Source: Phocoenobacter uteri (GTDB lineage Bacteria; Pseudomonadota; Gammaproteobacteria; Enterobacterales; Pasteurellaceae). From it: DNA of 24,000 bases. The stretch is from positions 2,042,638 to 2,066,637 of the forward strand of contig NZ_UGTA01000001.1 of NCBI RefSeq assembly GCF_900454895.1. Direction: 5' to 3'. The notes below the pieces were generated by a model. The model worked only from the letters and a program-made list of their open reading frames with translations, did no database searches and was not told the origin of the DNA. Below, piece after piece: positions 1,718 through 16,673 of this stretch. Position 1 is the stretch's first letter. The number at the start of each line of letters is the position of its first letter. The position numbers and the translations under genes were made by a program.

Positions 1718-1766
1718 AAGCGGTAAGATTTTGCAAATTTTTTACTAAATCTTACCGCTTGATCAT
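1718..1766 (-). terminator. glyS terminator built from an inverted USS pair
   Basis: AAGCGGTAAGATTT (1718-1731) and AAATCTTACCGCTT (1747-1760) form a perfect 14-bp inverted repeat. On the - strand the hairpin is followed by TTTTTT (complement of the A-run at 1712-1717). It lies 13 nt downstream of the glyS stop codon. Confidence 0.8.
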
Positions 1767-1772
1767 CACAAT

Positions 1773-3839
1773 TTATTGTAAAACTGAAATATCCGCCACA
1801 TTTAAGAATAGGCGTTGTAGCGAGCCTAAAATTGCTAAACGGTTATTACGCAGTTTTTCATCTTCGGCATTTACCATTACTTTATCAAAGAAGGTATCCA
1901 CCACATCACGCAAACTTGCAAGCTGTTCTAAAATCGCTTGATATTCGCCATTCGCAAATTGCGGTGCAAGGCTTGAATTTAACGCAATGATTTTTTCTGC
2001 TAATACTTTTTCAGCGTCAATTTCACAAAGTGAAAGATCGATCTCGCCGACACTATTTTCCGCTTTGGCTAAAATGTTTGCAACACGTTTATTCGCTGCT
2101 GCCAGAGCCTCAGCACTTTCTAAGGTACGGAAATAAGCTACTGCACGCACACGAGCGTCAAAATCTGCTGGTTTTGTTGGGCGACGAGCTAATACCGCTT
2201 GAATGACATCAACTGAAATGCCTTCATCTTGATACCACGCACGGAAACGCCCCAGCATAAAATCAACCACTTCATCGACCACATTTTTATTTGATAATTT
2301 ATCGCCAAATAATTGTGCTGATTTTTGGATTAAATCCGTTAAATCTAATGGTAATTTTTTCTCAACGATAATACGCAACACACCTAATGCTGCACGACGC
2401 AACGCAAATGGGTCTTTGTCGCCTTTTGGATACTGACCGATACCAAAAATACCCGTTAAAGTATCAATTTTATCCGCCAACGCAACGCTACACGCCACTA
2501 ATGAAGTCGGTAATTCATCGCCTGAGAAACGTGGCATATATTGTTCATTTAATGCAACCGCTACTTCTTCATCTTCGCCATCGTGACGTGCATAGTGCAT
2601 TCCCATTACGCCTTGCGTATCGGTAAATTCAAACACCATATTCGTCATTAAATCGCATTTTGATAATAAACCTGCACGTTTCGCTTTGGTTTCATCGGCA
2701 CCGATTTGTTTTGCGATTTCGCCACTGAGTTGCTCAATACGAGTGGTTTTATCACGCACTGTACCAAGCTGTTGTTGGAATAATACGGTTTCTAAACGTG
2801 GTAAATTATCTTCTAAACGCTGTTTTAGATCTGATTTAAAGAAAAATTCTGCGTCCGCTAAACGTGGACGAACCACTTTTTCATTACCTTCGATCACAAA
2901 AGTTGGATCTTCTGGGTTGATATTCGACACAAAAATAAAGTTTGGTAATAAGTTGCCCGCTTTATCATAAATAGGGAAATATTTTTGATCCCCTTTCATT
3001 GTGTAAACCAACGCCTCAGCAGGTACTTCTAAGAAACGCTCTTCAAATTTCGCCGCCATTACCACAGGGAACTCAACTAATGATGAGACCTCTTCAAGTA
3101 AGTCTTCTTCAATATCTGCGATACCGCCTAATGCTTCGGCTTTGGCTTGTGAATCTTTTAAAATGATCGCTTTACGCTCTTCAAAATCCGCAATAACCGA
3201 TCCTTTTTCACGTAAAATTTCAGGATATTGATCCGCATTTGTAATTTCAACTTCTTGTTGCCCCAAGAAACGGTGTCCACGTAAAGTCGTACCACTTTTT
3301 ACACCTAAAATTTCGCCGTTGATCAACTCATCGCCAAGCAACATCGTTACAGTATGCACAGGACGGATAAATTGTACGGTCTTATCGCCCCAACGCATTG
3401 CTTTTGGAATCGGTAATTTTGCCAACGCATTGTTGATAATCTCATTTAACAAGCATTTGGTTTCTTGCCCTTTGATAACCGCACGATGTACCAACCACTC
3501 GCCTTTATCCGTTGCGATACGCTCCGCCTGATCAACCGTAATCCCACAACCTCTTGCCCAGCCTTCCGCTGCTTTGGTTGGATTACCTTGATCATCAAAC
3601 GCCGCCTTAACAGCAGGACCACGTTTTTCAATATTTTTATCTGGTTGCACCAACGCAAGCCCTAAAACTTTAACCGCTAAACGACGTGGTGCAGCAAACC
3701 ATTCCACTTTATCAAAAGTCAAACCCACTTGGTTTAACTCTTGTTCCACATTGCCCGCAAACGCCAGCCCTAATTTTTTAAGTGCCTTCGGTGGTAACTC
3801 TTCTGTGCCAATCTCGGCAAGGAAATTTTTTGTTGTCAT
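1773..3839 (-). CDS. glyS: Glycine--tRNA ligase beta subunit
   Basis: 688 aa, collinear with E. coli GlyS over its full length as I recall it ([65 protein letters not shown], ending ADISVLQ). Confidence 0.97.
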
Positions 3840-3896
3840 TTTGTTCTCTCTTTTAGACTGTTCACGCAGAGCGTGAATAATGTAATATTAAATTTT

Positions 3897-4910
3897 CTAA
3901 ACGTTATTCAACGCTCTCACTTTTTCAATTTGTTGCTGTAACTGTAATTCTGTTGGTAGATAAGGTAAATATTTTGCACTAAAAATCTGTTTTCTATCGG
4001 CAAGTACAGAATATTTTGCAATCGCCTCACTTTTCTCACTACATAACACTAGACCAATAGTCGGATTATCATCTTCGCCTTTAAATTGCTCATCATACAA
4101 ACGAACATAAGTATCCATTTGCCCGATATCTTGGTGCTTTAACTTACCAATTTTTAGATCAATCAATAAAAAGCATTTCAGTTTGAAATTATAAAAAACT
4201 AAATCAATGTAAAAATCTTCATCGCCAAAACGAATTCTTTTTTGACGCTCAACAAATGCAAACCCTTTGCCTAATTCAAGTAAAAATTGCTGTAAATTAT
4301 TGATTATTGCTTGCTCAACATTACTTTCTTGATAGGTTTTATCCTGTAAATTTAAGAAATCTAAAATATAAGGATCACGCAAATAATCCTGTACCGTTTC
4401 TTTTAATACTTCTGTTTTTTCTTCTGCTTCTTGTGCAACAACAGACTTATTTTGGCTTGCTAATAAACGTTCATAATAAAGTACTGAGATTTGACGATCT
4501 AATGCTCGAACAGACCAGTTTTGTTCAATCGTTTCCTGTAAATACCATTGTCTAGCACTAGGATCTTCAACTCGAATTAATCGTCTATAATGCGACCAAC
4601 TCAATTCGCGACACAGTGTGTCACGAATTGGAAAAGCAAGATAAAACTGACGCATATTACGTAAATTTGAAATATCAAAACCTTTACCATACATTGTAGT
4701 TAAACGCTCTGATAAATTTTGTAACACATATTTACCATACTCAGCACGCTGTTGCCCTTGCTGTTCATCTTCCACAAGCAAACGCCCAATATCCCAATAG
4801 CATTGGACCATTGCAGAATTGACCGTTTGTTTAACTTGCTTTCTCGCTTGCTCAATAATTTGAGCAATGCTTTGAGTTAAGTCATTATTTTCTGTTGGAA
4901 GATTATTCAT
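3897..4910 (-). CDS. YhcG/DUF1016-family PD-(D/E)XK nuclease-domain protein
   Basis: 337 aa. The N-terminal helical region (CYWDIGRLL...EYGKYVLQNLSERL...GFDISNLRNMRQFYLAFP) and the C-terminal restriction-endonuclease-like core (LELGKGFAFVERQKRI...FYIDLVFYN...FLLIDLKIGKL...GQMDTYV) match the YhcG/DUF1016 pattern. The putative catalytic D236 and D251-L-K253 are present. Confidence 0.85.
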   Translation of the reverse strand: MNNLPTENNDLTQSIAQIIEQARKQVKQTVNSAMVQCYWDIGRLLVEDEQQGQQRAEYGKYVLQNLSERLTTMYGKGFDISNLRNMRQFYLAFPIRDTLCRELSWSHYRRLIRVEDPSARQWYLQETIEQNWSVRALDRQISVLYYERLLASQNKSVVAQEAEEKTEVLKETVQDYLRDPYILDFLNLQDKTYQESNVEQAIINNLQQFLLELGKGFAFVERQKRIRFGDEDFYIDLVFYNFKLKCFLLIDLKIGKLKHQDIGQMDTYVRLYDEQFKGEDDNPTIGLVLCSEKSEAIAKYSVLADRKQIFSAKYLPYLPTELQLQQQIEKVRALNNV

Positions 4911-4943
4911 AAATTTGCAAATTCTCTCTAAAACCTAACCGCT

Positions 4944-5207
4944 TTAACCAAAAATAGTTTGTAATTCTTCACGCTCTAATATTACTTTTTCATCGTCTAG
5001 CACCAAAGCAGGAATACCAATATTTCCTAAACTTTTTGGCATATCGAACGCCGAGTGATTATCGCGTAATTTTAAAAAGAGTTTAAAATTCGCCATTGAT
5101 TCAAAAATATTTACACCTTCATATTCAACATTTAAGCGTTCTAATTCTTGCTTAAATGGAATCGTATCAGGGCATAAATCAGCATAAAAAAGTGTTGGTT
5201 TATTCAT
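4944..5207 (-). CDS. Small glutaredoxin-like / thioredoxin-fold protein with a single-cysteine CPDT motif
   Basis: 87 aa from the ATG at 5207 (MNKPTLFYADLCPDTIPFKQELERL...). The order beta1-CPxx-helix1 followed by a GIPALVL cis-Pro-type loop is the Grx/Trx-fold layout. There is only one Cys in the protein. The start overlaps the stop of the upstream FRG gene (ATGAATAA). The track start at 5240 would add 11 residues. Confidence 0.7.
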   Translation of the reverse strand: MNKPTLFYADLCPDTIPFKQELERLNVEYEGVNIFESMANFKLFLKLRDNHSAFDMPKSLGNIGIPALVLDDEKVILEREELQTIFG

Positions 5208-6345
5208 TTTTAGTCTTTTTATCCTCAGAAGGTTGTTCATATTTCTTTTTAATCACTTCAGCTTGTTTATCTAGTTCAGGAAATAATGTTTCTTGGCTAA
5301 TTCCTAAATATTTTAAATCTTTCAATAAGTTATCTTTACATCTATAAGGAATTGTAATACTCATTTCTTGATCAGCGATCTTAAACCATTCTTCAGTAAG
5401 AATCGCAGGGTTTTCTTTTCCTTCTTCTGTCATACCATAAAGAAAGAATGATCCTTGTTGATAAATAAGACGATCATTTGTTTTACTTGGATTTATACAT
5501 AATACTTTATAAAAATCCTGGTAATTTATAAATGGTTGGAAATAAGGTTTACTTTTCCTAATATCATTCAGCAAAGAAAGCATTTGTGGCTGTTTGCATA
5601 AGTTATTTGTAAATTGCCTAAATAAACGTTCTATAAATCTTTCGTTTAATAAGTACCTTCTAGATTTAGCCATTTCTAAAGATTCTAAGTAACGATAATT
5701 AAATTTATCATTCTCTAAGTTGATTTCCAAATAAGAAATAAGAAAATCTTGTAATTCTGAATCTATTTTTTTTGAACTTGTTAAATATTGATTTTTACGT
5801 TCTTTTTTTATGCGATATCTTCTAATAAAAAAATCACACTTAGGTATGTCTTTAAATAAATCTCTGGAAGCCTCTTTAAAAGTCTTATCATCTATTCTAA
5901 ATTTATTTGGAGCAAGGCTTAAGGCACTAATTATGGCTACTGTATCACTATCAGAGTACTTTATTTGTTTTGTTGGTACTTTAAAAACAAATACCTTACC
6001 ATCTTTTTCTTTCTCATCTGAACAAGCAAAGTATAAAGCAACCAAAGCATTAGAGGTAATATCTAATAAGCGAGTAGGGCAACCATAATGTTGCAATTTT
6101 ACGAGTTTATCAAATAATAATGTTTCTTTTTCTAAATCTTGTGGGCAAGCAGTAAACATATCATTGATAATTTTATCTTCATTTTGAATATGTCCTTTAT
6201 TTCTAAATATACTGGGTTCCAATATCCATTCACAATTGGCATGTCCTCGGAAAAAATAAGTATTTTCTAACTTATCTTCTTCCTTTACATATTTTTTAAG
6301 TTCATTCAAAAAATCAGAAATACTGAATTGCTCACTACTCATCAT
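5200..6345 (-). CDS. FRG-domain protein (function unknown)
   Basis: 381 aa. It carries the diagnostic YFFRGH...W.L.PS.FR motif (aa 30-48) and QHYGCPTRLLDITSNALVALYFAC (aa 85-108). The C-terminal NDRLIYQQGSFFLYG and LKYLGISQETLFPELD blocks are typical of full-length FRG-family proteins. Sampled rows of the gene are very AT-rich (22-37% GC by hand count, most 22-28%). Confidence 0.8.
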   Translation of the reverse strand: MMSSEQFSISDFLNELKKYVKEEDKLENTYFFRGHANCEWILEPSIFRNKGHIQNEDKIINDMFTACPQDLEKETLLFDKLVKLQHYGCPTRLLDITSNALVALYFACSDEKEKDGKVFVFKVPTKQIKYSDSDTVAIISALSLAPNKFRIDDKTFKEASRDLFKDIPKCDFFIRRYRIKKERKNQYLTSSKKIDSELQDFLISYLEINLENDKFNYRYLESLEMAKSRRYLLNERFIERLFRQFTNNLCKQPQMLSLLNDIRKSKPYFQPFINYQDFYKVLCINPSKTNDRLIYQQGSFFLYGMTEEGKENPAILTEEWFKIADQEMSITIPYRCKDNLLKDLKYLGISQETLFPELDKQAEVIKKKYEQPSEDKKTKNE

Positions 6346-6354
6346 TGCACCTTT

Positions 6355-7272
6355 TTACTTCTTACACATCGGAAACCCTAACGCTTCACGGCTTGCATAA
6401 TATGCCTCTGCGACACCTTTGGTTAATGCACGAATACGCAAAATATAACGCTGTCTTTCCGTTACCGAAATCGCTTTACGTGCGTCAAGTAAGTTAAAGC
6501 AATGTCCTGCTTTTAGGATACGTTCATAAGCAGGCAATGGTAATGGCTGTTCTAGTTCTAATAACGCTTTAGCCTCTTTTTCGTACTCTTCAAAGCAGTG
6601 GAATAAGAATTCAACATTTGCGTGTTCAAAGTTGTAAGTTGATTGCTCCACTTCGTTTTGGTGGAATACGTCGCCGTAGGTGGTTTTGCCTAATGGACCA
6701 TCTGAATATACTAAGTCGTAAACACTGTCCACGCCTTGAATGTACATTGCTAAACGCTCTAAACCGTAAGTGATTTCGCCGGTGACAGGTTTACATTCTA
6801 ATCCGCCTACTTGTTGGAAATAGGTAAATTGGGTTACTTCCATACCGTTTAACCACACTTCCCAGCCTAAGCCCCACGCACCTAGTGTTGGGTTTTCCCA
6901 GTTGTCTTCTACAAAACGAATATCGTGTACTAATGGGTCAAAACCGAGCATTTTTAAGCTGTTTAAATATAATTCTTGGATATTATCTGGCGATGGCTTG
7001 ATAACCACTTGGAATTGATAATAGTGCTGTAAACGGTTTGGGTTTTCGCCGTAGCGACCGTCAGTTGGACGGCGTGAAGGTTGCACATAAGCCGACGCCA
7101 TTGGCTCAGGACCGATTGCACGTAAACAAGTCATAGGGTGCGATGTACCTGCACCGACTTCTAAATCGAATGGTTGTACGATAGTACAGCCTTGCTCTGC
7201 CCAGTAATCTTGTAGGGCTAAAATCATACCTTGGAATGTTTTTACATTGAATTTGGTTGTTGCTGTTGTCAT
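6355..7272 (-). CDS. glyQ: Glycine--tRNA ligase alpha subunit
   Basis: 305 aa, near-collinear with E. coli GlyQ ([65 protein letters not shown], ending [11 protein letters not shown]). Confidence 0.97.
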
Positions 7273-7326
7273 TATTTGTACCTAATTCTTAAAAGTGAAT
7301 AGAAAATTGCTTTTATTATACCTATT

Positions 7327-7414
7327 AAGCGGTTAGATTTGTGAATTTTTTTGCAAATTTACACAGAAATTCTCCTGATAAAACCCGTAAAAAATAAAAA
7401 AAATCTAACCGCTT
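7327..7414. repeat. Inverted USS pair in the glyQ/yihY divergent intergenic region
   Basis: AAGCGGTTAGATTT (7327-7340) and AAATCTAACCGCTT (7401-7414) form a perfect 14-bp inverted repeat separated by a 60-nt AT-rich spacer that contains TTTGCAAATTT. Confidence 0.75.

Positions 7415-13637: not shown

Positions 13638-16673
<3,036 letters not shown>

Follow-up and report, generated by a model that had tools for sequence, protein, structure and literature searches.

The genes for the two subunits of glycyl-tRNA synthetase (GlyRS), glyQ and glyS, are parted in Phocoenobacter uteri by three further open reading frames (ORFs), which were analysed here within a stretch of 24,000 nucleotides (nt) of contig NZ_UGTA01000001.1 (assembly GCF_900454895.1, positions 2,042,638 to 2,066,637), referred to as the window. 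A preliminary description of this DNA had taken the three genes, which encode an FRG-domain protein, a glutaredoxin-like (Grx-like) protein and a YhcG/DUF1016 protein, for one inserted cargo and a candidate defence or stress system. Comparison with related loci points instead to a hotspot with two slots. The reading that we regard as probable is that of a glyQ-grx-like-glyS operon, in which FRG and YhcG are two independent single-gene modules in separate slots. The Grx-like gene appears to have long belonged to the glyQS operon of the Pasteurellaceae and not to an insert, and FRG and YhcG would be partners neither of each other nor of the Grx-like protein. According to the ORF list of the window, the five genes all lie on the minus strand in the order glyQ, FRG, Grx-like, YhcG, glyS:

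6355..7272, minus strand: glyQ, glycyl-tRNA synthetase alpha subunit, upstream anchor of the hotspot (Pfam tRNA-synt_2e, 2.4e-147)

5200..6345, minus strand: cargo of slot 1, FRG-domain protein of 381 amino acids (aa; 380 aa from the second ATG; PF08867, 5.5e-21; PDC-S15, 1.2e-87)

4944..5207, minus strand: resident Grx-like gene between both slots, 87 aa, active site CPDT (homologues, synteny, structure model)

3897..4910, minus strand: cargo of slot 2, YhcG/DUF1016 protein of 337 aa, PDC-S02 (DUF1016_N, 3.4e-49; YhcG_C, 3.4e-55)

1773..3839, minus strand: glyS, glycyl-tRNA synthetase beta subunit, downstream anchor of the hotspot (Pfam tRNA_synt_2f, 2.2e-213, and DALR)

The gap of about 2.5 kb between glyQ and glyS is filled by the three same-strand ORFs. 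Their positions and junctions, as first described, agreed exactly with the ORF list and the sequence: +9 nt between glyQ and FRG, -8 nt between FRG and the Grx-like gene, which overlap in ATGAATAA, +33 nt between the Grx-like gene and YhcG, and +57 nt between YhcG and glyS. The start of the Grx-like gene is taken at the internal ATG at 5207, while the mechanical ORF extends to 5240.

Related loci were gathered by a scan with an alignment of the Grx-like protein, using one genome per species, so that all of them are Grx-positive. A Grx-like relative was encoded at 207 genome loci, and the best 80 of these belonged nearly all to the Pasteurellaceae, e.g., to Haemophilus, Aggregatibacter, Mannheimia, Bibersteinia and Histophilus, and further to Avibacterium, Gallibacterium, Glaesserella and Actinobacillus. 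When the five proteins of the window were placed by tblastn, the order glyQ, Grx-like, glyS on one strand was found in 61 of 84 Grx-bearing loci; the other 23 lay mostly on truncated contigs. Across these loci glyQ is 88-99% and glyS 78-99% identical. The gap between glyQ and the Grx-like gene, slot 1, ranged from 3 nt to 2.6 kb, and that from the Grx-like gene to glyS, slot 2, measured 59 nt to 7.7 kb. Two loci were free of cargo, those of Chelonobacter oris (L025) and Otariodibacter (L013), with 14 and 28 nt in slot 1 and 59 and 64 nt in slot 2, respectively. The cargo in the 61 loci amounted to 203 ORFs in 41 clusters and 48 architectures, and 195 of the 203 ORFs ran in the direction of glyQS, the eight exceptions being mostly short and doubtful. 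In Escherichia coli K-12, glyQ and glyS are spaced by 9 nt.

Conserved core genes thus flank a content that varies between relatives, as defines a hotspot, and the suggestion in the preliminary description of a hotspot at this junction, family-wide and with varying cargo, was borne out by the 48 architectures and the existence of empty forms. The two ORFs HI0925/HI0926 that it named for Haemophilus influenzae Rd also find support: HI0926, which lies between glyQ and glyS, appears as glutaredoxin-like in PMC3877243, so that one of the two is the same resident gene. No description of a glyQ/glyS hotspot in Pasteurellaceae or Haemophilus was found in the literature searched.

Accessory hotspots flanked by core genes are a known kind of locus, and this instance of it is new. 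With other core-flanked hotspots that have no integrase it shares conserved flanks, here glyQ and glyS, a very high turnover with 48 architectures in 61 loci, low-GC cargo, replacement of alleles within one family, restriction-type cargo and, in this window, the absence of an integrase, a transposase or att-like repeats between glyQ and glyS. It differs from them in lying inside the operon for two subunits of one essential enzyme, in having two slots parted by a fixed small gene, a redoxin that serves as an anchor, and in the near-total co-direction of its cargo, with no promoter or terminator detected in the cargo of the window. In addition, its cargo mixes defence-like genes with redox, envelope and virulence genes and forms no dedicated defence island.

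Residence of the Grx-like gene is argued from its presence in all 61 loci whatever their cargo, the cargo-free ones included. The dip in base composition on which the preliminary description relied is real, and its hand counts were roughly right: GC content and GC at third codon positions are 0.276 and 0.183 for FRG, 0.311 and 0.205 for the Grx-like gene, 0.335 and 0.234 for YhcG, 0.428 and 0.379 for glyQ and 0.415 and 0.322 for glyS, at a GC content of 0.372 for the whole window. FRG and YhcG are accordingly compositionally atypical accessory genes, as had been stated. Low GC was rejected as proof of a foreign origin of the Grx-like gene, because in 59 of the 61 loci, including the empty ones, its GC lies below that of glyQ and glyS. 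The low GC appears to be intrinsic to this gene and not a mark of recent import.

The comparison also separated the three genes from each other. YhcG occurred without FRG in 18 loci, and the Grx-like gene without YhcG in 40 of 61. The order was glyQ, AAA_15/21 ATPase and 201-aa gene, Grx-like, YhcG, glyS in Bisgaardia, glyQ, 122-aa gene, Grx-like, glutathione S-transferase (GST), DUF559, glyS in Frederiksenia, and Grx-like, YhcG, DUF559, FRG, glyS in Bibersteinia. The three families were found together at the locus in two Phocoenobacter species and in Bibersteinia, where the order differs, and did not recur as a unit elsewhere. Neither did the genes show a shared history. Between P. uteri and its sister species P. 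atlanticus the FRG proteins are 38% identical, the Grx-like proteins 93% and the YhcG proteins 94%; compared with Caviibacterium, YhcG is 84% and the Grx-like protein 59% identical, indicating separate histories of these two genes. With the Grx-like gene fixed in 61 loci and FRG and YhcG in separate slots on either side of it, the comparative data largely appear to refute the claim of one inserted three-gene cargo.

The two Phocoenobacter species further provide a direct view of the exchange in slot 1, which in both is occupied by an FRG gene. The DNA identity to P. atlanticus (L011; blastn) is about 94% over window positions 7300..6355, breaks off precisely at the glyQ stop codon and returns to about 94% over 5307..1732, i.e., 105 nt before the FRG stop codon. 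The segment between both blocks is:

5308..6354, minus strand: replaced segment between P. uteri and P. atlanticus, beginning just past the glyQ stop codon and ending about 105 nt short of the FRG stop codon (blastn)

Within it only 224 nt of the conserved FRG core could be aligned, at 74.6% identity. At the protein level, the N-terminal core and the C-terminal region match, with the last 35 or so codons near-identical, and residues 146-252 or so do not. The FRG body has thus been exchanged between the sister species, in the pattern of a recombinational allele swap at a defence-type locus. The centre that could not be aligned coincides with a lower-confidence helical insert in the structure model, and since it is this same region that differs between the alleles, the insert is likely the variable sensing or specificity part of FRG.

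The FRG protein of the window is 100% identical to a P. uteri database entry, and its nearest non-self homologue is about 42% identical. It belongs clearly to its family, with 75.7 bits against PF08867 at a cut-off of 25 and the motif F31-F32-R33-G34 invariant in the alignment, and PADLOC matched it over the full length of the hidden Markov model (HMM) of PDC-S15, a single-gene candidate. The model had a mean predicted local distance difference test (pLDDT) score of 80.9, with block means of 52-68 in the weaker helical insert at about residues 160-240. A profile search of the PDB with the FRG alignment returned nothing, and Foldseek with the model against the PDB gave only noise, driven by the helical insert. 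Exact-sequence look-ups of contigs for the window FRG and the P. uteri Grx-like protein (P0001) gave no match, and their context was read from homologues. The view in the preliminary description that FRG has no established function is outdated: the Aravind group has assigned FRG to the ADP-ribosyltransferase superfamily and predicts it to be an antiviral NADase effector (PMC9503650). The protein would accordingly act as an NADase-type effector of this superfamily, and our best guess is a stand-alone, NAD-consuming abortive-infection effector. With the PDC-S15 family it shares the full-length HMM match, the FFRG motif, other family-invariant residues and the single-gene form. It differs from its relatives in an identity of about 42% at best and a longer central helical insert (381 versus about 338 aa), and from the closest ones in not being preceded by an AAA_14/DUF4143 ATPase. 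No phage test or demonstrated phenotype for PDC-S15 was present in the literature searched.

Outside the hotspot, FRG follows such an AAA_14/DUF4143 ATPase in Aggregatibacter kilianii and six gut-metagenome contigs; these pairs, with gaps of 2-14 nt, lie at 4688-7020 in L004 and at 4691-7017 in L005-L010. They may represent a two-gene FRG module, of which the ATPase is missing beside the P. uteri copy. In Cardiobacterium, FRG follows the gene for the large subunit of ribonucleotide reductase (L092, 3318-6029), and in Moraxella that for an ABC ATPase (L094, 3360-6005), while Neisseria FRG genes had no consistent partner. The Cardiobacterium and Moraxella genes lie 15-30 nt downstream of these housekeeping genes in the same direction, which mirrors the 9-nt gap behind glyQ. 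FRG genes thus seem to be carried habitually on the transcripts of housekeeping genes.

YhcG of the window combines an N-terminal helical, DNA-binding-like domain with a C-terminal PD-(D/E)XK nuclease domain and has a weak ParB-HTH match (Pfam). The nuclease motif D236...D251-L-K253 is intact, as expected of a DUF1016 PD-(D/E)XK protein, and PADLOC assigned the protein to PDC-S02 (2.6e-145), likewise a single-gene candidate. A phmmer search with YhcG returned one chance-level match only. Two YhcG clades occur in the hotspot, one at least 74% and the other about 38% identical to the window protein, and clade A is about as conserved as glyS (74-94% versus 78-99%). In slot 2 of five loci, a single Grx-like gene is followed by one YhcG from each clade, with about 80% and about 38% identity to the window protein, directly in tandem in L029, L033, L040 and L043 and with a PIN7 gene between them in L058. 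In slot 2 of L061 and L062, YhcG is split into ORFs of 276 + 77 aa and 240 + 121 aa, apparent pseudogenes that point to decay of cargo in some lineages. DUF1016 genes have been reported to be enriched beside type I restriction-modification (RM) and phase-variable loci (PMC9881135). With this family the window protein shares both Pfam domains at full length, the intact D...D-x-K motif and its occurrence as a gene alone, and it differs in lying inside an aminoacyl-tRNA synthetase operon and not beside a type I RM system. It would be a Mg-dependent DNA endonuclease, and may be modification-dependent or structure-specific; a methylase-less DNA endonuclease is our best guess. The listing of FRG and YhcG by PADLOC bears out that both families are catalogued as candidate defence genes, and both are also present in phage genomes (PHROGs).

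Among the nuclease and defence-like cargo of the 61 loci (Pfam, PADLOC), YhcG/PDC-S02 was found in 21 loci and always in slot 2, DUF559 in 24, AAA_15/21 ATPases with HEC-02A, PD-T4-4_A or AriA-like matches in four, and FRG/PDC-S15 in three; PIN7, HATPase_c_3, T5orf172/PDC-S57, EVE and Imm33 were also present, and L015 carried an Mrr nuclease. In Bisgaardia, the 201-aa gene behind the AAA_15/21 ATPase had no family match. In L024 (1-9928; Bisgaard Taxon 45, CP182107.1), slot 1 is taken up by a co-directional, type III RM-like cluster that exceeds 10 kb and encodes an SNF2 helicase, an N6/N4 DNA methylase and a type III Res subunit together with an AAA_15/SMC-like ATPase; no glyQ was found within 10 kb upstream, and in the sister strain (L023) glyQ directly adjoins the Grx-like gene. 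Other cargo comprised a secreted histidine phosphatase (His_Phos_2, 24 loci), a THAP4-like heme-binding protein (19), GST (16), a membrane protein (16) and OsmC (6), as well as GATase, GNAT and several lipoproteins. Six Aggregatibacter loci (L046, L051, L053, L055, L056, L059) have IgA1-protease autotransporters (Peptidase_S6, 1339-1730 aa) in slot 2, so that the hotspot carries virulence genes, too. Going by the counts at the hotspot alone, defence-like and non-defence cargo have a comparable share. The locus is a general accessory hotspot with a strong nuclease and defence component, as opposed to an island dedicated to defence.

No integrase or transposase ORF was found between glyQ and glyS in the ORF list of this window. 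A repeat search over 3700-6500 returned short imperfect matches of an AT-rich type only, with no target-site duplications or att-like sites, and the junction sequences shared no element besides a Shine-Dalgarno-like AGAGA and cores of the uptake signal sequence (USS). One such core adjoins the Grx-like gene:

4938..4944, minus strand: USS-like core AAGCGGT (Apl-type), beginning on the last base of the Grx-like stop codon (pattern search)

Further AAGCGGT cores flank the operon at 7414, 7327, 1760 and 1718, the full Apl-type ACAAGCGGT is present five times elsewhere in the window, and in many related loci glyQ is directly followed by USS pairs. In Haemophilus and Aggregatibacter, inverted Hin-type pairs (AAGTGCGGT ... 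ACCGCACTT) form hairpins 0-60 nt after the glyQ stop codon (e.g., L046, L049, L052, L059, L061, L063-L067), which look like terminators yet lie inside the operon. Based on the USS-like cores at the junctions and the lack of integrase, transposase and att-like repeats between glyQ and glyS, cargo would be swapped by homologous recombination within the conserved flanks, with natural transformation as the probable source of the DNA. The operon strand between glyQ and glyS of this window had no terminator-like site, and promoter-like matches were no commoner there than in shuffled sequence. Transcription from the glyQ promoter may thus read through the cargo and express it. As the essential glyS has to be transcribed, too, selection would then favour same-direction, terminator-free cargo, which would explain its near-universal co-orientation.

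A more far-reaching idea, which we put forward tentatively and consider unlikely, is that glyQ-grx-glyS acts as a recombinase-free, integron-like platform, in which promoterless cassettes enter two slots by transformation and homologous recombination, are expressed by constitutive read-through and are kept in one direction and free of terminators by the need for glyS. The Grx-like protein might in this case be tied to GlyRS, perhaps by redox or glutathionylation control of the alpha2-beta2 enzyme, and such a tie would explain why it is never lost. With integron cassette arrays the locus shares a fixed site at which accessory genes are packed tightly in one direction and apparently expressed from an upstream promoter. 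However, neither an integrase nor attI or attC-like repeats were found at the glyQS locus, which therefore lacks the recombinase gene and the repeated attachment sites at the boundaries that mark site-specific cassettes. Its cassette boundaries are breaks of homology in the flanking genes and, unlike those of integrons, point to homologous recombination.

Several observations weigh against the operon with two independent modules. The survey drew on the best 80 of the 207 loci. YhcG is present at each of the three hotspot loci with FRG, and FRG overlaps the Grx-like start codon in both Phocoenobacter species; the co-carriage and the overlap leave some room for a functional link. Moreover, a PDC-S02 representative gave no protection against T4, T5 and T7 in E. 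coli B (bioRxiv 10.1101/2024.09.26.614923), recombination in the flanks is the simplest model and is inferred, and read-through of the operon is inferred solely from the absence of predicted terminators. A single, horizontally acquired defence or stress system of FRG, the Grx-like protein and YhcG would account for this co-carriage, the tight same-strand packing with its 8-nt overlap, the low GC of all three genes and their identical order in P. atlanticus. However, the co-occurrence of FRG and YhcG represents two independent events against a YhcG background of 21/61 loci and is not significant (0.34 squared, p about 0.12). Contact with the Grx-like start is not specific to FRG either, as glyQ ends 3 nt upstream of it in Mannheimia indoligenes (L031) and the 201-aa gene of Bisgaardia ends on it. 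FRG of Bibersteinia sits in slot 2 and does not adjoin the Grx-like gene, and in the contexts examined FRG homologues outside the hotspot were never beside Grx or YhcG. Together with the 18 loci that have YhcG without FRG, the discordant divergence in Phocoenobacter and the Grx-like gene that persists whatever the cargo, this leaves the three-gene system extremely improbable. We regard as very unlikely, too, that the Grx-like protein and YhcG form a redox-controlled nuclease module to which FRG is an unrelated addition. YhcG does lie directly downstream of the Grx-like gene in 18 of the 21 YhcG loci, usually 30-80 nt past its stop codon. However, most loci have the Grx-like gene without YhcG, PADLOC lists DUF1016 as a single-gene candidate, two YhcG clades share a single Grx-like gene in five loci, and the adjacent genes in Caviibacterium have diverged unequally. 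In Pelistega, in addition, no YhcG match was found beside the Grx-like gene, which follows LysE or SirB genes there.

FRG and YhcG may also have no part in anti-phage defence and be selfish or neutral passengers, or genes of DNA or NAD metabolism, at a site that tolerates insertions, a possibility of some substance to which we nevertheless give the lesser chance. About half of the cargo is plainly unrelated to defence (GST, OsmC, histidine phosphatase, heme-binding protein, lipoproteins, IgA1 protease), the PDC families are candidates only, the PDC-S02 member failed to protect against the three phages, and the glyS-like conservation of YhcG clade A is unusual for a defence gene with fast turnover. 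On the other hand, PADLOC picked up both families by their association with defence islands, the surroundings of type I RM and phase-variable loci are enriched in DUF1016 genes, FRG was swapped for a 38%-identical allele, as diversifying selection would predict, and bona fide restriction genes (type III RM-like, Mrr) occupy the same slots.

The resident protein of the window is 100% identical to a P. uteri 'glutaredoxin-related protein'. It had no match in Pfam and reached 21.5 bits against TIGR02196 (YruB), far below the cut-off of 88.55, and thus falls outside that family. In an alignment of 27 homologues the active site CPDT, not CxxC, and a G-I/V-P loop were conserved, the latter being the GIP cis-Pro loop in the window protein. 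The AlphaFold model (pLDDT 92.7) shows a small glutaredoxin/thioredoxin (Grx/Trx) fold, with BC3987, methanoredoxin, cGrx1 and NrdH as best PDB matches at a template modelling (TM) score of about 0.7; a profile search of the PDB with the Grx-like alignment gave marginal Grx matches only. Among the best 149 of 657 relatives from a profile search of 1.8 billion representative proteins, 63 had CPDC and 34 CPDT, and since the wider relatives carry either, the protein represents a monothiol branch of a small redoxin family. With COG4545-type small redoxins it shares the predicted Trx/Grx fold, the active-site position and the cis-Pro loop. It differs in the monothiol CPDT of the Pasteurellaceae branch, as opposed to CPDC in wider relatives, in the missing Pfam and TIGR02196 assignments and in its fixed place between glyQ and glyS. 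It would be a glutathione-linked redox protein without a role in defence. In a 286-aa protein (P0161), a Grx-like domain is fused C-terminally to an N-terminal domain of about 200 aa. Homologues that are 54-61% identical occur away from glyQS in Pelistega (Betaproteobacteria; L030, 10001-10258, and L073, 9998-10258), behind the gene for a LysE exporter or SirB. These copies outside the Pasteurellaceae suggest that the redoxin itself has spread horizontally.

Some further features of the window touch the hotspot at its downstream end:

3861..3877, minus strand: perfect 7-bp hairpin TTCACGC-TCT-GCGTGAA in the spacer between YhcG and glyS (sequence inspection)

This hairpin lies 21 nt upstream of the glyS ATG, is kept in P. 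atlanticus with a change in the loop only and is missing in other genera. It may act in the processing or stability of the mRNA, or serve as the binding site of a protein. A 14-nt inverted pair (3868-3881 and 4964-4977, 13 of 14 bases complementary) brackets YhcG, its arms falling within the hairpin spacer and within the 3' end of the Grx-like gene, respectively, and is most likely due to chance in AT-rich DNA. An Rfam scan of the whole window found no RNA family. Other ORFs of the window include one of 1007 aa at 13638-16661 and one at 480-1736 that adjoins glyS.

These results remove a false lead, as there is no FRG-Grx-YhcG system to pursue and both FRG and YhcG families are already single-gene candidates. 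P. uteri and P. atlanticus form a clean natural experiment for the role of FRG and for recognition by its variable insert, and the monothiol redoxin that is conserved between glyQ and glyS is a testable oddity, as yet unexplained. Across a family with human and animal pathogens, among them Haemophilus, Aggregatibacter, Mannheimia and Glaesserella, the glyQS hotspot parts two genes whose products make up one essential enzyme. With its virulence and restriction or defence cargo it could serve as a typing locus, and it is a possible source for the mining of new single-gene defence candidates.

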